From contig DATJSN010000045.1 of NCBI GenBank assembly GCA_035504095.1, forward strand, positions 591-64,590: 64,000 nucleotides of DNA. The letters are read 5' to 3'. Made by a program: the position numbers and the translations under genes. This DNA is from Phycisphaerae bacterium. GTDB taxonomy: Bacteria > Planctomycetota > Phycisphaerae > WQYP01. The notes under the pieces are model-generated. The model did no database searches and had not been told where the DNA came from. It saw nothing but the letters and a program-made list of their open reading frames with translations. Of the stretch, positions 5,096-59,853 are shown piece by piece (positions within the stretch are counted from its first letter, which is position 1; each line of letters opens with the position of its first letter).

Positions 5096-6262
5096 GTGTG
5101 GTTTAAAGCCGGTGTTCATATGCGTTATTCATACTCTGAATTCGACGGGCAGGAATTTCCCACGCCTGAAAGTCTCTTTAATTACTCGAATATTTTTGAT
5201 TTTATTCTGACCTATGGCGAACAAGCACTCGAGGCCATGGACAAATTAAAACCCGCTGATGAGCACATATTGCAAGAGCTTATCGAAAGTGGACTACTGG
5301 AAAAAGCTGCCGGACGGTTCAGGCTCACACCACGAGCCATTAACGCCATGCAGAAAAAAGCTTTGATGGAAATTTTCGCCAATCTGCCGCGAGGCAGTCG
5401 GGATTCGCATCCCACCACCAGCACCGGCAACGGCTCAGACAGGCTCGAAGGCACGAAAAAATATCAATTTGGCGATCCGATCAGCGAATTGGATATGACC
5501 TCTACACTTCGTAATGCCATCCAGCGCATCTCGGCGAGCGGCGTTCCGGTCGGTCTGCCGATCAACATCAAAGAGTCCGATATGGATTTGCATTTGCTTG
5601 AATCAACGACCAACTGTGCGTTGTGCATTCTGATTGATATGTCGGGCAGTATGCGGCGTTACGGACGGTTTCTGGCCGCTAAAAAGGTGGCTATGGCTTT
5701 GACTGCCCTGGTACGCGAGCGATTTCCTCAGGATACGGTCGATCTTGTCGGTTTTTATACTACGGCCATTCCTGTGCGAGAAACCCAATTGCCGCTGCTG
5801 ATGCCCAAGCCGGTCAGCACCTATGAATATGAGGTGGATGTTACGCTGCCTCTGGCGGACGCGGCCCAAACTCACCAGCACTTCACCAATCTCCAACTGG
5901 GTATGCAGATGGCCCGGCGACTGCTCAGCGCACGTTCGGCCCAGCAAAAAATCATGTTTATTATCACGGATGGCCAGCCTACGGCGCACGTCGACGGCGA
6001 AACGCTTCATTTGCATTATCCGCCACGAAAAATCACCACGATGGCGACTCTGCGTGAAGGACTTCAATGCACTCGCGCCGGTGTTCGCGTGGCCAGTTTT
6101 GCACTGATCGAAGATTACTGGGATATGGAATGGGTTGAATTCATCGATCAGCTTACCCGGCTGTGCAAAGGAACTGCCTTTTACTGCACGGGTGAGAATC
6201 TGGCCAGTTGTGTGATGGAAAGTTATTTGAGCGGCAAAAAACGCAAGACGTATATTGCCTGA
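5096..6262 (+). CDS. von Willebrand factor A (vWA) domain protein, CoxE-like. The likely true start is the ATG at 5120; the track ORF begins at a GTG at 5096.
   Basis: The MIDAS motif ILIDMSGSM, with downstream conserved T and D residues, is typical of vWA domains. Confidence 0.8.
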   Translation: MWFKAGVHMRYSYSEFDGQEFPTPESLFNYSNIFDFILTYGEQALEAMDKLKPADEHILQELIESGLLEKAAGRFRLTPRAINAMQKKALMEIFANLPRGSRDSHPTTSTGNGSDRLEGTKKYQFGDPISELDMTSTLRNAIQRISASGVPVGLPINIKESDMDLHLLESTTNCALCILIDMSGSMRRYGRFLAAKKVAMALTALVRERFPQDTVDLVGFYTTAIPVRETQLPLLMPKPVSTYEYEVDVTLPLADAAQTHQHFTNLQLGMQMARRLLSARSAQQKIMFIITDGQPTAHVDGETLHLHYPPRKITTMATLREGLQCTRAGVRVASFALIEDYWDMEWVEFIDQLTRLCKGTAFYCTGENLASCVMESYLSGKKRKTYIA

Positions 6263-6279
6263 TCCATTTCGAAGCGCTT

Positions 6280-6807
6280 CTACGCCGCAGGCAGTACGAA
6301 CTCCTCAAGCTGCGATGGAAGCGATTTAAGTCCTCTTTTTTTGGCCAACCGCACATAGTGCTGCATGCTTCGTCGATAATGCCGCCGGACATGTTCGTCT
6401 ATGGGAATATCGCGTCGTCGCATTTGCTCAAAGGCCCATTGCCAGACGTGGTATTCCTCCAGACAGCGCGGCCTGAATTTCCTGAAACCGACTGCGTGGT
6501 GCCCCACTTCATGTAAAAATATGCAGGCACTCACCGGCGAACGCGGTCGCGGTGCTGCCACCATCCGCTTAATTTCTCCATTGTTGTAATGGAGTTCGTA
6601 GGCGACTCCACTCATGCTGCGTCGCCATTTACGGATGGCAATTCCATATTCATTCTTCATTTGCGCAACCAGTGCATCATAAAAGCGTCTTCGCTCGGCA
6701 GTTGCAGAGCCACCGGTTTTTATTACGCGGTAATATTTTTGCGGAGCTGTCGGATAATTTTTTTCGATGATCCCCAAGAAGGCCAACTGTTCCTCGATCA
6801 TTTGCAA
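6280..6807 (-). CDS. Hypothetical small protein with an HExxH (zincin-like) motif
   Basis: 175 aa. LHEVGHH motif, basic/aromatic-rich, convergent with the vWA gene. Confidence 0.5.
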   Translation of the reverse strand: MQMIEEQLAFLGIIEKNYPTAPQKYYRVIKTGGSATAERRRFYDALVAQMKNEYGIAIRKWRRSMSGVAYELHYNNGEIKRMVAAPRPRSPVSACIFLHEVGHHAVGFRKFRPRCLEEYHVWQWAFEQMRRRDIPIDEHVRRHYRRSMQHYVRLAKKRGLKSLPSQLEEFVLPAA

Positions 6808-7110
6808 TTTCCGCCGCTGATGGGTTGATTATCGTAATTCTGTAGGCAGGGTTAACGTTTGGTTTACAAAATATTTACGCAGCGCCTGTGCCAAACGAGA
6901 ACCGCTGCAGAAAAAAGGAATCGGATTTTTACACTACATTAACTGAGCGGCCTGCCCGCCGTTTGCGGTTGAGCATCTGCCGGCCTTTTTTGGATTTCAT
7001 ACGGGCGCGAAAACCGATTTTCCTGACACGCTTACGATTGCTGACCTTGTGGGGATAATGCACGCTAAAACTCCAATACAACCTTTTTGAATTTTAATCT
7101 CAATTGGTAC

Positions 7111-9324
7111 TTATTGCACCTTCACCAGCACGGAGGCATACGCGTTATTACCCTGGTCATCCGTAGCCAGGATCACTACGCGATGCGACCCGGGGTCCAG
7201 AGCTTTCGTAATGGCGCTGAAGCCCTCCAGCGGCGAGTCGAAAATAGTATCCGATGCCGCCGCAGGCTGCCAGTTTGTCGCGGAATCGATTTGGAAGCTT
7301 ACCTGAGTAACCGGCGAGAGTTTATCGCTCGCGATGCCGGTAATCTCTACCTGTCTTCCAGGTAGAGCCTTCCACTGCAGATTGGCGATAGTAGGCGGTG
7401 TATTATTGACCAGGAACCATTGGGTTTGACGGGCCACTTCAAAAGCATTTTGCGGTGGATTGTCCGGTGCATCCGAAGCGATCACCCTTACCTGATAATA
7501 ACCGTCGGGAAGCCCCGTCGTGTCCCAGGAATATTGAGTATCGGACAAATCTTTGGCAATCGAAATCCATACCGGGATACCCTGCTGTTGATAAGAGAGT
7601 TTGTATGCCAGTGTATCGTTATTCGCATCCGAAGCCTCCCACTGGATCGTGAGCTGGTGAGGCGAGTCGGATTGTGGTTGCACCTGCACGCTGGAAATCT
7701 CCGGTGGTACATTGATCTGTTGATAGGAAATTCGCCCAAGATGAACCACCGGAGTTTGCCCGTTTTTATCCGCCTGCAGTGTCAGACGAAACTGCAAATA
7801 CCGTGCGGTGGGGCTGGAAATTTTGCGATATTCATTGGCCGGCATCGGAGCGGACCATGCGCTCCAAAATTTGCCCAGGGTATCCACGTCCGGCAAATTT
7901 CCGCTGCGTGTTTGAATTTCAACATCGGCTCCTTCAGGAATGTCGGCGTCAATATGCGCTGCGCCCCAGTTAGCCGGCAATTGGGCATCCAACACTTTAC
8001 TGGTGTACGTGCCGCCGTCTACCGTTCCTGAAGAGAGTTCATAAACCTGTCCCTGATTGGCGGTTCCCAGATAAAGTTGTCCGTCGGGACCCAAGGTCAT
8101 GCAAAGGATATTCGCTTCGTTCAACCGTGCGATCAGTGATCGTGTCTGTGTGGCGGGCGTAAAAAACAATAATCGTCCATGATCACTAAGTCCCAGCATC
8201 AGTACGCCCTGATTGTAGAGCATCGAAAGAATCATGTCCGGAACATGCAGTAAAGTCGTAATCCTTCCCGCTGGTGTAATTTCGTAAACAGCGTTGGTCT
8301 GCGATGACTGCCCCTGTTCGTCTTGGTCCGACTGCGGCTGTGTTGAATTCGCATCATCGCTGGCGTCGCCCTGATCATCTGCGGGGTTTAAATCGTCCTG
8401 GTCATCAGCGGCATCCTGACCCTGTCCGTCGCCGGAAACGGCGCCGCCAGTTACATTCAACGTTGCGGGTTGACCGCCTGTGTGACTCTGTGGTTGAAAT
8501 AAACCACCGCTTCCCTGGGCAAGTCCTGGTGAAGCTGTAGCTGCAAAAACATTACCAGCGGCATCGGCAGCCAATGAGGATATTTCGGCATGGTCGGCGG
8601 ACATCAAAACAAACGATTCTCCGCTGGAAGCATTGACGCGAATCACCAGTCCCGGGCCATCGGTGCCGGCATACAGATTGCCATCCAGCCCAACGACCAG
8701 AGACGTAATGTTGTGTACATCCGCGCTAAAAATTTCTTTTGACGTTCCCTGTGGATCAACCCTCCAGATCTGGCCGTGTGGTCCGGTCGCCAGATAAATG
8801 GACCCGTCCGCACCTTGTTCAATCGCCCATATATATTCAACGGATGCCTGTTGAAAAAGAGTCGTTGTCGTGACCTTACCGCCAACATTGGAGAGGCGAA
8901 TAAGCTGGGCGGAGGACCCGCAAGTGCCTGCGAGCAGGGCTCCATCTTTATCCATGGCCAGGCTTAAAATGTCTGTCTGTCCTGCCGGAGGTTGGTAATA
9001 TGCGCTGGTTTGCCCACCGGAAATTTTATATATTTTTCCATTGGGTGATGTGCCGAAATAAATGCTGCCGTCCGGGGCCGCTGCGATGGCGCTAATCATG
9101 GTGAACATCGTGTGGTTTAGCAGAGGTTTAAGTTCCCGGCTTAACTGTAACTCACCAAGATTATTCACCACGGTATTGTGAAAGCTTCCATCGGCATACG
9201 AAGATTCTGTATTAAATTCCCAGTTTTGAGCTTCCACCGCCCAGGCAATCGGAGTCGCAATCAGCAGAACGGCTCCGATCGCAACCAAGATGTTTACCGT
9301 CCGATAAATTTTTTCTGCCAACAT
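7111..9324 (-). CDS. Large secreted/anchored protein: repeated beta-propeller-type blades, an acidic D/Q-rich low-complexity linker and a C-terminal Ig/Fn3-like region.
   Basis: 737 aa with an N-terminal signal-anchor. Repeated DGSIY(F/L)GT...G(Q/K)I(Y/W) blades occur about 6 times. Low-complexity segment DDQDDLNPADDQGDASDD. Confidence 0.8.
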   Translation of the reverse strand: MLAEKIYRTVNILVAIGAVLLIATPIAWAVEAQNWEFNTESSYADGSFHNTVVNNLGELQLSRELKPLLNHTMFTMISAIAAAPDGSIYFGTSPNGKIYKISGGQTSAYYQPPAGQTDILSLAMDKDGALLAGTCGSSAQLIRLSNVGGKVTTTTLFQQASVEYIWAIEQGADGSIYLATGPHGQIWRVDPQGTSKEIFSADVHNITSLVVGLDGNLYAGTDGPGLVIRVNASSGESFVLMSADHAEISSLAADAAGNVFAATASPGLAQGSGGLFQPQSHTGGQPATLNVTGGAVSGDGQGQDAADDQDDLNPADDQGDASDDANSTQPQSDQDEQGQSSQTNAVYEITPAGRITTLLHVPDMILSMLYNQGVLMLGLSDHGRLLFFTPATQTRSLIARLNEANILCMTLGPDGQLYLGTANQGQVYELSSGTVDGGTYTSKVLDAQLPANWGAAHIDADIPEGADVEIQTRSGNLPDVDTLGKFWSAWSAPMPANEYRKISSPTARYLQFRLTLQADKNGQTPVVHLGRISYQQINVPPEISSVQVQPQSDSPHQLTIQWEASDANNDTLAYKLSYQQQGIPVWISIAKDLSDTQYSWDTTGLPDGYYQVRVIASDAPDNPPQNAFEVARQTQWFLVNNTPPTIANLQWKALPGRQVEITGIASDKLSPVTQVSFQIDSATNWQPAAASDTIFDSPLEGFSAITKALDPGSHRVVILATDDQGNNAYASVLVKVQ

Positions 9325-18714: not shown

Positions 18715-20184
18715 TTATTGAGCGGACAAGTAAGCATAAAATTTTTGAGCGTCCTCATTTCCGAGATGCGCGGCTCTTGCGGTCCAGGCAACCGCCTTGT
18801 TAATGTCTTTATTCACACCATAACCATAATAGTAGCAATAACCGATGTTATACATAGCCTCTGTATTTCCGGCAGCAGCAGCATTTTGAAACCAATACAG
18901 AGCCTGTTTGTAATCTTGGGCCAAGCCACGGCCGGTGGCATACATCAAACCGATGTTGTTCATAGCATTAGGATTTCCACATGTCGCAGCCTTTTGAAAC
19001 CAGTCCATTGCCTGCTGATAATTCTGAGCTGCACCTTCGCCGTATTCGTAATCAACACCGATATTGAACATAGCCACAGGTTCACCTAAAGCTGCGGCCT
19101 TTTGATACCATACAAAAGCTTGTTGGTAATCTTGATGGACGCCATGACCTTGATCATATGCCACACCGATATTGTACATCGCATCAGAATTCCCCAGTGC
19201 CGCAGCCTTTTGATACCATGCAAAAGCTTGCTGATAATTTTGAATTACACCCTCGCCATTGGTGTAAAGAATACCAACGTTATACATGGCTTTAGCATTC
19301 CCTAACGCTGCGGCCTTTTGATACCATGCAAAAGCCTGTTTGTAATCCTTGTGGAGTCCCAACCCATCAAAGAATAAAGAGCCAATTCCATCCATAGCAT
19401 CGGCATTACCAAGTTTTGCGGACTTTTGTAACCAAATCATGGCCTGTCCATAATCCCGCTGTATTCCATCACCACTTTCATAAAGCTCAGCAATGTTTTG
19501 CATTGCCAAGGATGATCCACCATCAGCAGCCTTTTCCCACCAGAAAAGAGCTTGATGGGGATCTTTGGGAACGCCATGCCCCTGTTTATAGAGATTACCA
19601 AGGGCGAACATTGCCAATACGTTGCCTCCATCAGCGGCTTTTTTATACCACTGCATTGCTTGTCTAAAATCCTGCATTACGCCCAAACCCTGATCATAAT
19701 GCTGACCGAGGTTATACATCGCGTCGACAACTCCCGCAGCGGCAGCCGACTGCCACCAATCAATCGCTTTGGAGCGATTTTGAGCGATGCCCAAGCCCTG
19801 GTCATAAAGCTGTCCAATATTAAACATCGCCTCGCCATCGCCGCCGATGGCGGCTTTCTGGAACCAAATCATTGCTTGCGAATAATCCTGAGCTACGCCA
19901 TAGCCATTCTTGTAAAGATCACCAATGTTGTTCATGGCATCAAAATTACCTGCTGCCGCCGCCTTTTGAAAATACATCATTGCCTGTTGGTAATTTTTCT
20001 GTTCGAAAGCTTGCCCACCAATCTGGTAATCGGCATCATCGGGTGCCGTCGATTCAGTGGTTGTCGGCACAGCCGCAGCATTTGTTGCGGCTGCGCTGAA
20101 AAAGTAGTAGGTGGAAAGTAGAAAATAGAGTATTATCATTAATGCAAACAATTTAAATAGAATTTGGAAACGTTTCATCTGCAT
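18715..20184 (-). CDS. Sel1-like (TPR-family) repeat protein with signal peptide. The start is trimmed to the ATG at 20184 (MQMKRFQILFKLF...) to avoid overlap with trpS.
   Basis: More than 12 tandem ~36-aa Sel1 units (AMYNLGxxYxxGxGVxQDYxQAxxWYQKAAxxGN). Confidence 0.85.
   Translation of the reverse strand: MQMKRFQILFKLFALMIILYFLLSTYYFFSAAATNAAAVPTTTESTAPDDADYQIGGQAFEQKNYQQAMMYFQKAAAAGNFDAMNNIGDLYKNGYGVAQDYSQAMIWFQKAAIGGDGEAMFNIGQLYDQGLGIAQNRSKAIDWWQSAAAAGVVDAMYNLGQHYDQGLGVMQDFRQAMQWYKKAADGGNVLAMFALGNLYKQGHGVPKDPHQALFWWEKAADGGSSLAMQNIAELYESGDGIQRDYGQAMIWLQKSAKLGNADAMDGIGSLFFDGLGLHKDYKQAFAWYQKAAALGNAKAMYNVGILYTNGEGVIQNYQQAFAWYQKAAALGNSDAMYNIGVAYDQGHGVHQDYQQAFVWYQKAAALGEPVAMFNIGVDYEYGEGAAQNYQQAMDWFQKAATCGNPNAMNNIGLMYATGRGLAQDYKQALYWFQNAAAAGNTEAMYNIGYCYYYGYGVNKDINKAVAWTARAAHLGNEDAQKFYAYLSAQ
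18760..20000 (-). repeat. Intragenic tandem ~108 bp DNA repeats encoding the Sel1 units
   Basis: Periodic recurrence of TGGTATCAAAAGGCTGCGGCA-like and CCATGCAAAAGC-like blocks through the gene. Confidence 0.7.
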
Positions 20185-20282
20185 ATTCAAACTCAATATT
20201 ATAGATTCCAACTTTGTTACATCACGCCTGATCCATGCCATGATATCTGCTGAATCCCTGAATTCCGTTGTTGTAAACCGCT

Positions 20283-21392
20283 TCAATCGGAGAAAATGAT
20301 TTTGCGCGGAACAAAATTCTGTTTCATCGCCTTTTTGGCTGCCAACAATGTTTCTTCCGCGATGGCGTTGGCTCTGGCCGTTCCTTCGCACAGCACCTTT
20401 AATACATGCCCCTGGTCTTTTTCGTATTCTTCACGCCGTTTGCGCATTGGCTCAATCAAAGCTATAAGCACTTCGACAAGTTTTTTCTTACAGTCCACGT
20501 CTCCGATGCCTCCGGCGCGATATTTTTCTTCCGCCTGATGTACCCATTCTTTATCCGGATTGAACGTTTCATGAAATATCCAAAGCGGGTTATTTTCCAC
20601 CGTACCCGGATCGGTCGCGCGCTTTCGATTCGGATCGGTATATATCGCCATCACTTTTTTCCGCACCGTATCCGAATTGTCGCTTAGATAGATGGCGTTG
20701 TTGAGCGATTTACTCATTTTTAATAATTGCCCCTCGGCATTTGGCGGGCCAATGCCCACCAGCCGTTTTACCCGGCCCAGCAGCGGTTCAATAATTGGAA
20801 ATAATCCCCCTGCCGCTACATTATCCTCATCCGGCGTTTGCGGATTTACGCCGCAATACATCTGGTTGAAACGCCTCGCCACTTCGCGTGTTAATTCCAG
20901 ATGGGCAAGCTGATCTTCGCCCACCGGTACAAGTTTCGGACGAAACGCCAGAATATCCGCGATCTGCCCCACCGGATAAAGCAGGAATCCGAAACTGTAA
21001 TTATCGCCCAGGCCTTTATCGCGAATTTCATCCTTGAGTGTAGGATTGCGCATCAGACGGCCGAAGGGGACCAACATGCTCAGGAAAAATGTCAGTTCCG
21101 CAATCGCCGGCACTTCTGACTGGACAAATATGGTACTTCGTTTTGGATCGATGCCCGCAGCAAGATAGTCCATGGTAATTTCGATGACGTTCTGCCGGAT
21201 TTGGCCCGGTTGATCCGCCTGCGTGGTGAAAGCATGTGCATTGGCGATGATAAAGTAACACTCGTACTGGTCCTGCAATTTGACCCGATTTTCCAGTGAA
21301 CCGACCCAGTGTCCCAGATGCAGTTTTCCCGTAGGCGTATCGCCCGTTAGGATTCTGGGTCGGATATTTTGACTCGATGGCCGCTGATCCAT
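20283..21392 (-). CDS. trpS: Tryptophan--tRNA ligase (long form)
   Basis: Class I motifs: HIGH-like TGDTPTGKLHLGHW and KMSKS (KMSKSLNNAIYL). Confidence 0.9.
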   Translation of the reverse strand: MDQRPSSQNIRPRILTGDTPTGKLHLGHWVGSLENRVKLQDQYECYFIIANAHAFTTQADQPGQIRQNVIEITMDYLAAGIDPKRSTIFVQSEVPAIAELTFFLSMLVPFGRLMRNPTLKDEIRDKGLGDNYSFGFLLYPVGQIADILAFRPKLVPVGEDQLAHLELTREVARRFNQMYCGVNPQTPDEDNVAAGGLFPIIEPLLGRVKRLVGIGPPNAEGQLLKMSKSLNNAIYLSDNSDTVRKKVMAIYTDPNRKRATDPGTVENNPLWIFHETFNPDKEWVHQAEEKYRAGGIGDVDCKKKLVEVLIALIEPMRKRREEYEKDQGHVLKVLCEGTARANAIAEETLLAAKKAMKQNFVPRKIIFSD

Positions 21393-21534: not shown

Positions 21535-21593
21535 GTAAGAGCCTCTAACCAAATTTGATGCGGATTCAGGCTCATTTTGGTTAGATGCTCTCA
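21535..21593. repeat. Mini inverted-repeat hairpin element sharing its arms with the terminal inverted repeats of the 59477-59762 element
   Basis: GTAAGAGCCTCTAACCAAAT ...(20 nt)... ATTTTGGTTAGATGCTCT: about 17 bp arms with one mismatch, lying between trpS (5' leader on the minus strand) and ptsI. Confidence 0.6.
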
Positions 21594-21702
21594 ATCATCC
21601 AGGCCCTGCCGTTCCGGCCGGATATCGGTTTTTTCGGTTCAAGCTCCGGGCCCCCCTGCCGACATTGCTCCGCGGCGGGCCTCGCAGCCGGTGAATTTGC
21701 AA

Positions 21703-23460: not shown

Positions 23461-23509
23461 CGAAACGCTTTTTTTGCCAGAGACTCTCTATTTCGTTTAA
23501 GATTGCTCT

Positions 23510-23788
23510 AGAATCTATCTCAAACCATAGCGAGAGCCGCGTTTGGCATCAAAGTGGTCAGATGCAAGGAAGAGCGACGAGGTTATATTCGAAAGATAAT
23601 ATGGTGAGGAGTGTTGACGCCGCAGATGGCCGCTTGGAGGCCAAACCCTTCGGGACGAGGCTGCCTGACCCCGAATCCGGCGTCGCACCTTCTCGCTGTA
23701 TTGTATTTTAATACTCGCTCGTCGATGCTCCTTGGCTCGGAGCCAGGCAGCCGACGTCGCGGCCTCGATATGTTTTGAGATAGATTCT
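23510..23788. repeat. Copy A of a ~280 bp structured inverted-repeat element (candidate ncRNA or MITE-like), bounded by 15 bp terminal inverted repeats AGAATCTATCTCAAA / TTTGAGATAGATTCT.
   Basis: The core aligns with 59500-59740 in shared blocks: GAGCCGCGTT(T/G)GGC, CAGATGCAAGG, CGCCGCAGATGG, CCCTTCGGGACG, GGCGTCGC, CTCGCTGTATTGTATT(T/C)TAATAC, TCGTCGA(T/A)GCTCCTTG, CAGC(C)GTCGCGGCC. A sub-hairpin shows compensatory changes (ATATT-cgaaagat-AATAT versus GTATC-cgaaggat-GATAC). It ends 2 nt before the ATG at 23790. Confidence 0.7.
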
Positions 23789-23789
23789 T

Positions 23790-24314
23790 ATGCCCAAAGA
23801 AACACTGTCTCCCCGAATACGGCACATTTTGCTTTTGAGTACAATGATTGTCCTCGGGTTGCTGGCTTTAGTATTTGCCGACTTGGTAATGCACTGGCGC
23901 GCGAAAGTTGACCGGATAGCATTTACGCCGCCTAGTCACGACTTTGTTCCCACCCAATCCAGTGTACTACTACTTAACGGCCGGTCACGATTAATCGACC
24001 GCTTCAGTATTTCATTAAATGGCGGCTTCTCTAATGATCCGCAGTCCTTAATTAATGAACTTTTTGGCCAGGTTCTTTCCGATGTATCGAGCGACCTTAA
24101 CAAGACTGGATCCCCGGAAGTTTCCTTATCGAATAACGGTCCATTTTATACTTATAAAGCTTTTTGGCCCAATAATCAGGGCTTCCTTTTCATGAACTTT
24201 TTGGTCAGTTCTGGTGAGCTTGAGGCCATCAGTTATTTTGGAATGGGCGAGAGTTTTCCACAGGACGATCAGTATTTTCAGGCGCTGTCTGTTAAAATAT
24301 TCTCCGGAGACTAA
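23790..24314 (+). CDS. Hypothetical membrane protein
   Basis: 174 aa with an N-terminal TM (ILLLSTMIVLGLLALVFADLVM). The start codon abuts the right terminal inverted repeat of element A. Confidence 0.6.
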   Translation: MPKETLSPRIRHILLLSTMIVLGLLALVFADLVMHWRAKVDRIAFTPPSHDFVPTQSSVLLLNGRSRLIDRFSISLNGGFSNDPQSLINELFGQVLSDVSSDLNKTGSPEVSLSNNGPFYTYKAFWPNNQGFLFMNFLVSSGELEAISYFGMGESFPQDDQYFQALSVKIFSGD

Positions 24315-26819: not shown

Positions 26820-27049
26820 GGTCATTTGTAAGTATTAATTGTGAGTTCTCAAAGATGATTTAAGGAATGTCGCTTGACACAGTACTCTTGTATCGTACGG
26901 TCAACACACTACAATCAGATTTGACGCGACATTGCGTCCAATCCGCAGCGCGGGCGATCTATTTTCAGCTTGCGGCTCGAAGCAAACCGCATGCAGTGGC
27001 GACACAGCGGATGTTTTCTGTCATTTATTGTTAGTTGGGTAGCTCCAAT

Positions 27050-40463: not shown

Positions 40464-40491
40464 TCCTTCCCGATTAATTTTGTTAGAGGCT

Positions 40492-41535
40492 CTAGCCGAC
40501 AGAATTCGTGACTTGATTCAGCATAGTTACCCAATGACCGGCCCAATGGGCAATCGAATAATTTTCTATCACATGCCGACGACCGGCGTTTCCATACGAT
40601 GAACGAAGACTTTCATCTTCGGTGAGCCGTCGAATGGCCAGACGCCACTCTTCTGGACCTGTTGCCCAATAACCATTAACACCATCAACAACGATTTGAC
40701 GATTCACACCCACGGGGGTCGCAATTACCGGAAGACCGGCAGCCATGTACTGCAATAATTTAGCGCCGCATTTAGCGGCTTGGTAGGGATTATTTTCCAG
40801 CGGCATAATTCCCACGTCAATGTGCATGGAGATCGTGCGCTCCAGTGTTGGTGACCAATTTAAATAGCGCACCCAACGTGAGTCCTTCATGAATGAGGCG
40901 GGCCGATCTGAAATGACCACCAGTTCGAATTTCAATTCCTGCTGCAATTCGTGAAAAACTTTCGCCATGGGTGCCAGGGTGTGCTCTATCGACATTGAAC
41001 TTCCAAGCCAGCCGATGCGCAATGGCCCATTTAATCGATGGTTTTCACGCACACTGTAACAATCGGTATCAACGGCTGTAGGAATGATGACGTGCTTGCG
41101 AGTAACGCTCGAAATGGCATCCGCAATGGATTGATTTCCACAGATGATAACATCGGCCCGACGACATAGTGCTTCAAAACCAGTGCGATCGCCACCGAGA
41201 TAAATTGCATCATCGACGTCCAATATAAGTGGATTGGGTGCATTCAAAAATGGGCGCTTGCTTACAGGCAACTCACGACTAATCACAATTGGTTGATGTG
41301 GACCAAGTTTATGAAGCGCGGACGAAGCTTGCAGAGTACGCCATCCCCGCCGTAAACGATGTCCGGTGCGGCCGAACCACTTTGTCTTTGGCAAACTCGA
41401 CTGACCTATTCCGGAATCAAAATGATGTATTCGTAGTCGCCAGCCGCTTTTCTCCAGGTGCGGAGCATAAGCCGCAATCCTCATCCTGGACGAAGGATGG
41501 TTGACGCCCAGAGAAAACGCCAGAACATTTTTCAC
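40492..41535 (-). CDS. Glycosyltransferase family 4 (GT-B, GT1 clan)
   Basis: C-terminal E-x7-E-like region, with AAKCGAKLLQYMAAGLPVIATPVG typical of GT4. Confidence 0.85.
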   Translation of the reverse strand: MKNVLAFSLGVNHPSSRMRIAAYAPHLEKSGWRLRIHHFDSGIGQSSLPKTKWFGRTGHRLRRGWRTLQASSALHKLGPHQPIVISRELPVSKRPFLNAPNPLILDVDDAIYLGGDRTGFEALCRRADVIICGNQSIADAISSVTRKHVIIPTAVDTDCYSVRENHRLNGPLRIGWLGSSMSIEHTLAPMAKVFHELQQELKFELVVISDRPASFMKDSRWVRYLNWSPTLERTISMHIDVGIMPLENNPYQAAKCGAKLLQYMAAGLPVIATPVGVNRQIVVDGVNGYWATGPEEWRLAIRRLTEDESLRSSYGNAGRRHVIENYSIAHWAGHWVTMLNQVTNSVG

Positions 41536-54610: not shown

Positions 54611-54774
54611 GTATATTCCTTAAACCATTAGCCCACCTATATAACGCCGAATAGGCAATCTTATTATTGTACTTTTAGCCTTTCTACTTTTAAATTATTA
54701 CTCCAATCCGGTCCCTTGGACTCGCCCAGGCCTATTCGTATAATCTGCTCTGGTTTTTTTGTTAGAGGTTCTAG

Positions 54775-55179
54775 ATGAAATTTATTGTCGAAGAAGTTAA
54801 GCCTGGATTCATCACACTCAACGCTCCGGGCACAAATTATCGCAACACATTCAAATGGGCCGGCACACAGATGCCCGAGGTCGGCAAAAAAATATTTGGA
54901 ACTATTTACGCCGTGGCCCGAAAAATTGAAGAAGTCAGCGACGGCGGCAACTATGTGGAGCCCCTTTTTGGCCTGCCGCGTCGCATGCAGGGACTGGTAT
55001 TGTCTCAGGACACGCTGAAAAACGAGTTATTGGTATTGGTTGGTTATCAGGTCCGCGTAACTGTTCCTGCAACCCAGAATGCTGGTGATTTTGCCGTCGG
55101 TTCGCGCGTCGGCTGGGATAACGCCGAACAACCGTCATTTATGGCTGAAGCATCCGACGCAATAACCACCGGCGCATAA
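54775..55179 (+). CDS. Hypothetical protein
   Basis: 134 aa ORF. The TTGTTAGAGGTTCTAG motif lies immediately 5' of its ATG. Confidence 0.5.
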   Translation: MKFIVEEVKPGFITLNAPGTNYRNTFKWAGTQMPEVGKKIFGTIYAVARKIEEVSDGGNYVEPLFGLPRRMQGLVLSQDTLKNELLVLVGYQVRVTVPATQNAGDFAVGSRVGWDNAEQPSFMAEASDAITTGA

Positions 55180-55229: not shown

Positions 55230-55301
55230 GCGGGCGTAACTCAATGGCAGAGTGCCAGCCTTCCAAGCTGGCTGTTGTGGGTTCGAGTCCCATCGCCCGC
55301 T
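55230..55301 (+). tRNA. tRNA-Gly (anticodon UCC)
   Basis: Manual fold: acceptor GCGGGCG/CGCCCGC, D-arm ACTC-AATGGCA-GAGT, anticodon stem CCAGC/GCTGG with loop CTTCCAA, T-arm GTGGG-TTCGAGT-CCCAT, discriminator T; 72 nt. Confidence 0.9.
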
Positions 55302-57126: not shown

Positions 57127-59475
57127 TCACGCAGCCACAAACGAAACCGCCCATTGCACTTCCCGACTTACCGGAGATTCAATTGTCACCCGCGTCCAGA
57201 AGCCGGCTTCCGCGTGCGAAATTTTTACGCCCGCTGCCGTATCCGCCGATGAAACAACGACTGAAGCAACTGGCGCGCTGGCCTGACCGTTTTTCGTTAA
57301 AACTACTAACTCGGGCGCCGGTTGTGAAATGCGCAATTCATAAGCCGATCCGCCTACTACTTTGCTGGTTCCGCTGAGCGTGTTAGTTTCCGGATTCCAT
57401 TGTTCACTCACCAGGTCGACCGCCCCCTGTGTGACGTGACGGGACGTGCTGATCAGTTGCGGATTCTTTGTCCGTGGCCTAATCGCCATTACCAGACACG
57501 TTCGCCCCGGCAGATCAAATGTCCAGCTATTTAAACCGCTGATCGGTTTATTGCCCCAGAAATCAAAAGCGTCATAGACTGCGTTAGGGTCCAACCCCGC
57601 CGCTGCTGGATCAACTTGTGCCGTCCAGTGTCCGCTGCTCCAGTTGAACAAACCCAGAACGTAATGGACCTCATCGTCGACTTTATAAGTTAACATCCAA
57701 ATCCGCGCCGGATCATTATCAAACAGGTCCACTGGGCGGACCGTTTTGAATTGATGCGAAGGCATCATGCAGCGCAGTGCGTCGATGCGTTCCTGCGTGT
57801 ATTCCAGCATCCAGTCACTGGTAGTGTGATGGGCGCTAAGCAACGTCACCCATGAGCCATAACACAAAAACTCGTTCATCGGAACCGAAAGTCGGGCGTA
57901 AATCGGATCAGGATCGTTCCACCATACGCGCCCGTTAAGAAAATACAGATGCGAACCGGCGTGTGTTCCATGCTGAATATTGGCCCATTTGGATGTGTTG
58001 TCCGGCCCGATGCGCATCGCGTCGACCAACCCCAGCTCCATGCCCAGCGAACGCTCATTTTGAGGCAAACAACACCCGAGGATAAATGTATCTGGTCCGG
58101 CGGCCTCACGAATTGTCTTAAGTCCCAGCCGTGCCGCCTGCATATTGGACATGGTTTTGTCCTTGAATACCGCGTCGCCGAAGTTGTCCTCGTAATAAGC
58201 TTGATTCGCAATTTGATGAGAATAATCCTGCAGACATGCCAACCCTGTATATTGGCCGTCGATTTTCAGATAACCATACCCCCACTTATTCATCGCCTGA
58301 CTGATAAACCCTGCGACATAATCCCGTGCTTTACTGTACGTCATGTCCAGGCATGTGCCGCCCCAATAAGTGTCATATACCGAACCATCTTCCCGGCGAA
58401 CCACCAGGTCCAGCTTGTCTGCGAATATTGGATCCTGATAATCAATCGCGAACGGCAGCATCCATATTCCCGGCAGCAGTCCCAGCGCCGCGATCTTATC
58501 CGCCACCGGTTTCATGCCCGCCGCATACGGCCCTTTGGGATTCACATGATAAAAATCCATCGCCGGCCAGCCGTTGCGCTTCTGGCCGTTTTGCCAGTGA
58601 TCGTCAATTTGCACAAAACTGAACCCAAACGGGGCAAAATTTTTGGCGGCATATTCAGCGATTTGCTGCAGATGTTCCGGATCGGAAGCGGCGCCATGTT
58701 TATCCGAATACCACGTGCAATATCCCGGAGCATGTGGCTTAAGTTTGACCCCGTTAATCAAGGCAAACTGATCTGCCCAGGTTTCCAGGCCATCGCGTAC
58801 ATCGTCAAACCAGCCGATCGCCCACCAGTCCCCGCCGAATTCATCCAATGTAGGCGGAATCGCACTGCCGTAATCGTTACGCAATTTTAGTACAATTTTG
58901 CCGCCTTCCACTCTTGGAAATATCACGCCGCTGGCGGCGTCTATTCTGATCAGACCCGCCACTACGCCGCTTCGTGAGACTGGATCGGCGACTGTTGTTA
59001 CCACGTGTTGGCCCGGATTGTTCGCCGGATCATAAAGTCCGCCTGCCCCTAGTCCTTTGGTCGACGCCTCAAGACTTAATTTCGCCTCAAATACGCTCAC
59101 CCGATGTCCCGGCATGATCACGTCGGAGTTGCGCGGATCGCGGCGAATAAAAACAAACGGAACATCCTGGGCAATAACAATCCAGTTTTCTCCCGGCGAA
59201 ATTTTCAACACTTTTCCCGGACCAAATGGCGAATCCGCGCCCAGATCAACGATGCTGCACGACCCTGCTCCGGGCTGCATAAACAACCCCGATGCGAATG
59301 GACTTAAATCGGCAGCCAATGTCAGCATGCCCGTGGTCGTATCCATGCCGGCAAATACTTTGCCGTTGCTGATGATGCTCACCGGTGAATCAGTCTGTGC
59401 GTAAAGTTTGGCAGGAATGCTCGCCGCCCCCGCCGATACCAGCAAGGTTCCTACAAATTCGCGACGTGTGAACAT
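57127..59475 (-). CDS. Tat-secreted putative glycoside hydrolase (TIM-barrel, alpha-galactosidase-like). The start is the ATG at 59475 (MFTRREFVGTLLVSAGAAS); the track ORF extends to 59646 through repeat element B.
   Basis: Twin-arginine signal RREFV. The internal WGYGYLKIDGQ resembles the catalytic KxD region of clan GH-D enzymes. The family assignment is tentative. Confidence 0.7.
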   Translation of the reverse strand: MFTRREFVGTLLVSAGAASIPAKLYAQTDSPVSIISNGKVFAGMDTTTGMLTLAADLSPFASGLFMQPGAGSCSIVDLGADSPFGPGKVLKISPGENWIVIAQDVPFVFIRRDPRNSDVIMPGHRVSVFEAKLSLEASTKGLGAGGLYDPANNPGQHVVTTVADPVSRSGVVAGLIRIDAASGVIFPRVEGGKIVLKLRNDYGSAIPPTLDEFGGDWWAIGWFDDVRDGLETWADQFALINGVKLKPHAPGYCTWYSDKHGAASDPEHLQQIAEYAAKNFAPFGFSFVQIDDHWQNGQKRNGWPAMDFYHVNPKGPYAAGMKPVADKIAALGLLPGIWMLPFAIDYQDPIFADKLDLVVRREDGSVYDTYWGGTCLDMTYSKARDYVAGFISQAMNKWGYGYLKIDGQYTGLACLQDYSHQIANQAYYEDNFGDAVFKDKTMSNMQAARLGLKTIREAAGPDTFILGCCLPQNERSLGMELGLVDAMRIGPDNTSKWANIQHGTHAGSHLYFLNGRVWWNDPDPIYARLSVPMNEFLCYGSWVTLLSAHHTTSDWMLEYTQERIDALRCMMPSHQFKTVRPVDLFDNDPARIWMLTYKVDDEVHYVLGLFNWSSGHWTAQVDPAAAGLDPNAVYDAFDFWGNKPISGLNSWTFDLPGRTCLVMAIRPRTKNPQLISTSRHVTQGAVDLVSEQWNPETNTLSGTSKVVGGSAYELRISQPAPELVVLTKNGQASAPVASVVVSSADTAAGVKISHAEAGFWTRVTIESPVSREVQWAVSFVAA

Positions 59476-59476
59476 A

Positions 59477-59762
59477 GTAAGAGCCTCTAACAACATAAGC
59501 CGGGAGCCGCGTTGGGCCGCAAATGGCCCAGATGCAAGGCGGAGGCCCGAAGCCGTATCCGAAGGATGATACAACGAGGGCCGACAACGCCGCAGATGGG
59601 CCATTTGCGACCCAACCCTTCGGGACGCGGTGCCTTTCGGCCCCATACGGCGTCGCTTCTCCTCGCTGTATTGTATTCTAATACTTGCATCGTCGAAGCT
59701 CCTTGTCTGGGACCCAAATGCCCAGCGTCGCGGCCCCGCCTTATGTTGTTAAAGGCTCTAAC
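59477..59762. repeat. Copy B of the ~280 bp structured inverted-repeat element, with 22-23 bp terminal inverted repeats GTAAGAGCCTCTAACAACATAAG / CTTATGTTGTTAAAGGCTCTAAC.
   Basis: The core aligns with copy A (23525-23770). Its terminal stems have a different sequence from copy A but are self-complementary in both copies. It begins 1 nt from the ATG (59475) of the minus-strand hydrolase gene. Confidence 0.7.
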
Positions 59763-59853
59763 CCTCCTCGTGGACCGCCATTTAAATAAAACTTACCATT
59801 CATCATCTGCCGCTGCCAGTGATTTAATGGCGTTATTCCAGTAACATAACGTC

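Follow-up and report, generated by a model that had tools for sequence, protein, structure and literature searches.

A recurrent 14-nucleotide motif in a Phycisphaerae contig very probably marks the ends and debris of a family of non-autonomous transposons

Why should one 14-nucleotide sequence occur in a small hairpin between two divergent genes, in the narrow gap between two convergent genes and immediately before a start codon, all within a single stretch of DNA? The stretch that was analyzed, hereafter the window, comprises 64,000 nucleotides of a metagenome-assembled contig from a member of the Phycisphaerae (Planctomycetota). Allowing up to two mismatches, TTGTTAGAGGCTCT has six matches in this 64-kb window, compared with 0.30 expected from dinucleotide-preserving shuffles, and none of 100 shuffles reached six, so that the first-pass annotation of this DNA was right in considering the motif far above chance. 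Two matches are the arms of the hairpin between trpS and ptsI (21538-51 on the minus strand and 21578-91 on the plus strand), two are solitary copies on the plus strand (40480-93 and 54759-72), and two are the left and right arms of a longer element, copy B (59480-93 on the minus strand and 59746-59 on the plus strand). A further, degenerate copy that had been proposed at 27028-27046 does not belong with these: the segment has no match even at up to five mismatches of the 18-mer consensus, and because the leader in which it lies is conserved in L005, a syntenic relative, we regard it as ordinary gene-specific upstream sequence and not as a family member.

Our analysis leads us to conclude, with high confidence, that the motif is the outer 14–17 nt of the B-type terminal inverted repeat (TIR; GAGCCTCTAACAAA...) of a family of ~278-bp non-autonomous DNA transposons (MITEs). 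The palindromic look of TAGAG-G-CTCTA is partly contributed by the TNA target duplication that adjoins the TIR.

The position of some copies near start codons could instead be taken to mean that the motif is simply the general ribosome-binding or leader consensus of the organism. GAGG is indeed found 6–8 nt before the ATGs at 54775 and 59475, and Shine-Dalgarno-like sequences are present at ~39% of starts (GGAG, GAGG or AGGA at −18 to −5 in 21 of 54, vs 6.4% of random positions). However, the 14-mer itself occurs at only two of the 54 starts in the window, where a consensus of this kind would be expected upstream of most genes, and three of the six either have no start within 100 nt or are located at gene 3' ends. 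The left arm of copy B lies 5 nt from the start codon at 59475 on the minus strand, which the first-pass annotation did not mention. Given these counts, we consider a general leader consensus extremely improbable.

Two full-length elements are present in the window, both in plus orientation: copy A (23511..23787, 277 bp), which is bounded by A-type TIRs (GAATCTATCTCAAA.../...TTTGAGATAGATTC), and copy B (59481..59758, 278 bp), which is bounded by B-type TIRs (GAGCCTCTAACAAC.../...GTTGTTAAAGGCTC). They have a common core, 71% identical over 188 nt according to an ungapped repeat finder and detected by nhmmer in the two copies at E=1e-77 and 1e-86, and they differ from each other in the sequence of their terminal arms. 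Copy B is enclosed by a perfect TAA/TAA duplication (59478-59480 and 59759-59761). Copy A is flanked by CTA (23508-23510) and TTA (23788-23790), the latter ending in the A of the ATG at 23790; in a near-identical strain (L181), the left flank of copy A is also TTA.

Both sites are found empty in relatives. In L005, which is syntenic with the window (93% PtsI identity), the site of copy A contains a single TTA (AAGT-TTA-TGGCC), as opposed to CTA-[copy A]-TTA-TG in the window. In L182, the site of copy B is represented by a 99-bp spacer vs 378 bp in the window, a difference that fits the 278 bp of the element plus a 3-bp duplication. L005 additionally contains a shortened A-type copy one gene further on, as well as a solo A-type arm after ptsI.

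The mini-hairpin in the divergent trpS/ptsI spacer consists of two B-type TIRs that form a 52-bp mini-MITE (21539..21590), with arms of ~18 nt (approximately 21539-21556 and 21573-21590; AAGAGCCTCTAACCAAA...TTTGGTTAGATGCTCT) around a 16-nt centre. Folded on either strand, it reaches −25 kcal/mol with a z-score of about −5.8. The hairpin that had been described at 21535-21593 is therefore real, but its arms read TGGTTAG and not TTGTTAG, and the flanks, TAA (21536-21538) and TCA (21591-21593), are both of the TNA form but are not identical. The same mini-MITE is found in L181, while in L005 the trpS/ptsI spacer is without it and otherwise diverged. Minis of 53 bp with another TIR subtype were detected in L148 and L085, and recur in both orientations. 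Within the diverged spacer, a separate block upstream of ptsI (21640-21702 in the window, 9920-10000 in L005; GGTTCAAGCTCCGGGCCCCCCTGCCGACA...GCGGGCCTCGCAGCCGGTGAATTTGCA) is conserved and may be a promoter or leader element of that gene.

The solo copies contain even less of the element. At 40469..40492 on the plus strand, a B-type TIR of 24 nt (CCCGATTAATTTTGTTAGAGGCTC), followed by TAG, fills the 28-bp gap between two convergent genes, just as the first-pass annotation had described for the match at 40480, and the stop codon of the minus-strand glycosyltransferase gene (40492-40494) is composed of the last TIR base and the flank. The repeat finder matched this copy to a copy B arm over 26 nt (85%), and nhmmer placed it at HMM positions 259-284, corresponding to the 3' arm, with no core adjoining it. 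The other solo copy, a B-type remnant at 54755..54771 on the plus strand (TTTTTTGTTAGAGGTTC), is followed by TAG (54772-54774) and by the ATG at 54775, which it had been correctly said to abut; NCBI annotates the same start (HTV47927.1), and GAGG precedes it by 6 nt. Here, too, nhmmer detected no core remnant. A solo TIR of the same kind occupies the orthologous copy B site in L183. A search for the orthologous sites of the solo copies by means of a 703-aa neighbour protein yielded no close enough relative with a long contig. As part of the overall MITE explanation, and with the same high confidence, we interpret the 52-bp hairpin as a two-TIR mini-MITE and the copies at 40469 and 54755 as single TIRs that remained after deletion of the rest. 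The 134-aa gene that starts at the latter copy is followed, ~50 nt from its 3' end, by a tRNA-Gly gene (anticodon TCC; 55230-55301, plus strand).

The family, highly multicopy and common both in this Phycisphaerae genome and in soil metagenomes, extends well beyond the window. A core-only pattern (GCCGCGTT-N15-CAGATGCAAGG) matched 116 loci in JGI metagenomes, whose host GC contents range from 48 to 72%. In 46 of these loci the match is no more than 300 nt from the locus end, which suggests that the repeats break assemblies, and a contig may contain several copies. Sixty-odd complete metagenome copies have closing inverted arms of 25–35 nt, and complementarity between the arms is ~90% or higher, both for the copies of the window and for at least 60 of the metagenome. 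At least 10 TIR sequence subtypes, among which the B-type is common, surround one conserved core, and only a few TIR positions are common to the subtypes (G1, C-T at 5-7 and C-A-A-A at 11-15). Locus L097 (Ga0335074_10002389) contains three or more subtypes (GGCTCTGTCTCATA, GAATCTATCTCAAA and GAGCCTCTAACAAC) within 2 kb (6073-7826); since several subtypes are thus found on one contig, there as well as in the window, they coexist in one genome. The possibility that the core inserts into pre-existing host hairpins, in which case the arms would belong to the target, was rejected, as every subtype of arm accompanies the core at many unrelated loci.

To compare the flanks, copies were anchored at the outermost G...C pair and the 3 nt outside each end were examined. 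Identical 3-nt direct flanks were found in 16 of 49 non-redundant copies, compared with 5.06 expected (p<1e-5). These duplications consist of TAA, TTA or TGA and, in rare cases, of CTA or ATA. Perfect duplications are thus confined to a third of the copies, the TAA/TCA flanks of the mini-hairpin being one instance of an imperfect pair; of the 18 copies that have TNA at either end, 14 agree in the middle base, and the inverted combination occurs in only one. The elements form a size series of 433, 370, ~278 (the mode), 170–205, 141, 101–117 and 52–53 bp, in which the 101–117-bp forms keep the left core and then jump to the right end, and the 52–53-bp forms retain two TIRs with a centre of 10–16 nt. 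Their orientation relative to the flanking genes is unbiased (++, 7; +−, 8; −+, 7; −−, 5). No recurrent protein was identified among the element neighbours, and the only ORFs across the elements are spurious stop-to-stop ORFs.

Taken together, the duplications, the empty sites, the size series, the random orientation and the lack of a recurrent neighbour protein identify the element as a MITE, and we are confident that it represents a new family within a class of elements already known. Among the possibilities that the first-pass annotation had listed for the motif, it is a family of nested or deleted MITEs that the target-site duplications, the empty sites, the size series and the hundreds of related metagenome copies bear out. 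A puzzling recurrent motif thereby receives a largely ordinary explanation, the ends of MITEs and their debris. Out of the ordinary are the apparent use of a TIR as a Shine-Dalgarno sequence and the strongly conserved structured core. Origins of the IS200/IS605, REP or retron-like type were rejected because the elements have a direct duplication of 3 bp and no associated gene. One metagenome locus (L120, 1267-3765) contains inverted duplications of up to 121 nt, arranged symmetrically around a composite 433-bp element (2302-2734), which reflect either a genuine fold-back rearrangement or a chimera that arose where a palindromic repeat was assembled.

The core pattern had no match among viral contigs, where the 15-mer motif matched 55 loci, once each, with no clustering or enrichment seen; a plasmid BLAST search with copy B returned no match; a scan of genome contigs with GCTGTATTGTATTNTAATAC, the hairpin block of copies A and B, gave three chance matches with no flanking similarity and no taxon-labelled copy; and a literature search by element sequence strings retrieved unrelated primers only.

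It had also been suggested that the motif is a protein-binding site. If it were the operator of a host DNA-binding regulator, the palindromic TAGAG-G-CTCTA would be expected in the promoters or leaders of a regulon, and the palindromic core is in keeping with this, as is the fact that two divergent intergenic regions contain copies and that two genes are immediately preceded by one. However, the motif is absent from the orthologous trpS-ptsI spacer in L005 and from the region upstream of the ortholog of the GH36-like gene in L182, one copy lies between convergent gene ends, the similarity runs 10–12 nt further inward, exactly as in the element TIR, and the TNA flank forms part of the palindrome. 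A host operator is therefore very unlikely, and the suggestion of a protein-binding site holds only in the sense of a TIR that is bound by a transposase.

The TIR interpretation also accounts for the copies next to start codons, because the GAGG of the B-type TIR, which A-type TIRs lack, may replace a Shine-Dalgarno sequence that has been split off by an insertion. The minus-strand order around copy B is ...CGAGGAGGG-TTA-[element]-TTA-CT-ATG. The native Shine-Dalgarno sequence (GGAGG) of the 782-aa GH36-like gene (GAGGAGGG; 59762..59769, minus strand) is now ~290 nt upstream of the ATG because copy B inserted between the two, and the left TIR of copy B, which on this strand ends in TTAGAGGCTC, places a GAGG 8 nt before the ATG at 59475. 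This one gene is found in all three states: in L182 (75% identity to the window gene) the site is empty and a native GAGGAG precedes the ATG by 8 nt; in the window it holds the full copy B; and in L183 (81% identity) only a solo TIR is left (TTTTAGAGGCTC-TTA-GC-ATG), with neither a native Shine-Dalgarno sequence nor a core.

Based on the position of the GAGG and on this series of empty, full and solo sites, two TIR copies probably now serve as ribosome-binding sites, the TIR having apparently been co-opted as a Shine-Dalgarno sequence. When a B-type TIR lands between a Shine-Dalgarno sequence and its ATG, its own GAGG, 6–8 nt from the ATG, would take over, and a TIR acting in this manner would persist after the rest of the element had been lost. 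Judged by its sequence, the copy at 54759 (GAGG, 6 nt, ATG) seems to have arrived at the same final state as the solo TIR in L183. The proposal of a translation-initiation module, which the scarcity of the motif at starts and its absence at orthologous genes in relatives exclude as the primary explanation, thus appears to be apt in a secondary sense, at sites where the element split the native Shine-Dalgarno sequence from the ATG.

In the metagenome loci, the insertions are concentrated at gene boundaries. Many copies abut stop codons, which is no surprise, since TAA and TGA fit the TNA target and are restored when it is duplicated. The left TNA flank is often itself the stop codon of the preceding gene (L005 12386-12388, L147, L156, L157 and L085 are among the examples), and the start codon of a divergent gene is often only 3–14 nt from the TIR. 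Stop codons and the A/T-rich spacer that precedes the ATG provide TNA targets in otherwise compact intergenic DNA, and presumably only those insertions that leave the genes functional survive.

The conserved core poses a question of its own. Across the subtypes it folds into a three-way junction, formed by the TIR stem (P1) and two long hairpins. Pairing is kept in 94.2% of cells, vs 73.4% when shuffled and 34–49% when slid, and compensatory changes, counted without correction for phylogeny, are found at 40 of 55 pairs; covariation is also seen in P2, the second long hairpin, and in the outer stem of P3, the third. Copy B folds at −147.8 kcal/mol (z of −9). Invariant islands of the core, which include GAGCCGCGUU, CAGAUGCAAGG and ACGCCGCAGAUGG, are conserved across hosts of 48–72% GC. 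Covariation of the TIRs is expected for a transposon, but covariation of the internal hairpins is unexpected for a MITE, transposition by itself does not account for the conservation of the core, and the maintenance of one core with compensatory changes beneath at least 10 TIR subtypes, in hosts of such different base composition, hints at selection on structure. Copy A differs from its counterpart in L181 (3470-3490) by two changes at 23544-23560 (GGCATCAAAG vs GGCCTCCAAG), which break two pairs of the second helix and could reflect decay of this copy or an assembly consensus artefact.

These observations raise the possibility that the ~278-nt unit is first and foremost a family of structured non-coding RNA genes, or else a cis-acting RNA, with the TIRs as its closing helix P1, in which case the motif copies would matter as RNA, for example as a stem that sequesters a ribosome-binding site or as an RNase III target. 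In addition to the retained pairing, the covarying stems, the stable fold and the conserved islands, the excess of G-U over A-C in P2 (63 vs 26, uncorrected for phylogeny) is in accordance with this idea. In P1, however, the two are nearly balanced (33 vs 28, likewise uncorrected), as expected of DNA-level repeats, and the loop of the short hairpin occurs both as TTCG and as its reverse complement, GAAG. Moreover, Rfam yielded nothing credible over copy A or copy B at E-values up to 10, the unbiased orientation relative to flanking genes argues against a 5'- or 3'-UTR element, and the unit is a transposing one, as its target-site duplications, empty sites and deleted forms show. A riboswitch-like leader, in which the 5' arm would mask a ribosome-binding site, was rejected because the orientation of the element is random with respect to neighbouring genes. 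We regard both the RNA unit and the proposed roles of the motif copies as RNA as rather unlikely, and note that an RNA function could be superimposed on the MITE explanation but would not replace it. In that form, the core would be a functional structured RNA, or a single-stranded DNA structure, that rides in an IS5-like MITE superfamily in distant bacteria, which we likewise put forward as a tentative and rather doubtful proposal. Were it correct, the core might act on read-through transcripts, by insulating or processing them, or might aid its own mobilisation, and the family would constitute an unrecorded class of RNA-carrying MITE.

As to the transposition of these elements, the duplication, the TIR resemblance and the literature lead us to infer, by analogy, that their mobilisation depends on a TIR-binding DDE transposase of the IS5 / PIF-Harbinger type, supplied in trans. 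In neither the window nor ~765 kb of related loci did TIR-pair and generic inverted-repeat scans over 600–2500 bp reveal a convincing autonomous element with matching TIRs. Within the IS5 family, insertion sites of three nucleotides are reported to be common in the IS1031 group (PMC2516522), and the TIRs of the IS5 family include GAGACCTTTGCAAAA of ISNme1 (PMC4596501), which GAGCCTCTAACAAAA of the present family resembles in a comparison made by eye only. The closest comparison set is therefore provided by this group and by the IS5-derived bacterial MITEs, namely the ATR element of Neisseria, which has been proposed to derive from ISNme1, and the MITEs of Porphyromonas gingivalis. Compared by eye, the TIRs look alike in that they begin with GAG or GG and lead into C-A-A-A-A. 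As in these, the elements are non-coding and present in many copies, sites are filled or empty depending on the strain, and the insertion site comprises three nucleotides. In contrast to these, the present family has many TIR subtypes, a single deeply conserved and covarying core, and hosts that range from 48 to 72% GC, and it has neither a matching autonomous IS among the sequences searched nor sequence identity to described elements.

PIF/Harbinger-Tourist elements have TIRs of 14–25 bp, a TTA/TAA duplication and an IS5-like transposase (PMC2213677). The present elements are similar to them in TIR length, in the 3-bp TTA/TAA duplication and in their short non-coding body, and would by analogy likewise depend on an IS5-like DDE transposase supplied in trans. 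Unlike these eukaryotic elements, however, they are bacterial, TGA and other TNA triplets also serve as targets, and the G(N)5GTT rule fits only some of their TIR subtypes.

Among the small palindromic intergenic repeats of bacteria, the unrelated sequences of the Correia (NEMIS) elements of Neisseria and of the ERIC/IRU elements of enterobacteria, the latter with deletion variants, also invite comparison. Both form long hairpins in transcripts, are conserved across genera and affect how neighbouring genes are expressed, by way of promoters or RNase processing, but they duplicate TA and not TNA, and we know of no established role for either as a replacement Shine-Dalgarno sequence. REP and BIME repeats share with the present family the character of high-copy intergenic palindromes. 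Unlike these repeats, which are GTAG-tagged palindromes of 20–40 bp mobilised by RAYT transposases (PMC3733652) and which lack the combination of TIR and duplication, the present elements are units of 52–433 bp with TIRs and a 3-bp duplication; unlike a REP, a single TIR is not a stable hairpin, and no neighbour gene recurs.

For those who annotate genomes of Phycisphaerae or from soil metagenomes, these repeats, which break assemblies and sit on start and stop codons, can now be recognised as such. At the gathering threshold, Rfam assigns two RNAs only to the window, the tRNA-Gly and a fluoride riboswitch (RF01734; 62846-62913, plus strand; 56.5 bits); in the syntenic locus L182, genes for crcB and a DUF190 protein are located in the neighbourhood that corresponds to the riboswitch. 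A repeat of a different kind is contained in the gene at 18715-20391 (minus strand), where at least nine tandem units of 108 nt (36 aa), 62–72% identical, extend over 18840-20001 in one ORF, and their period suggests that they encode Sel1/TPR-like repeats.
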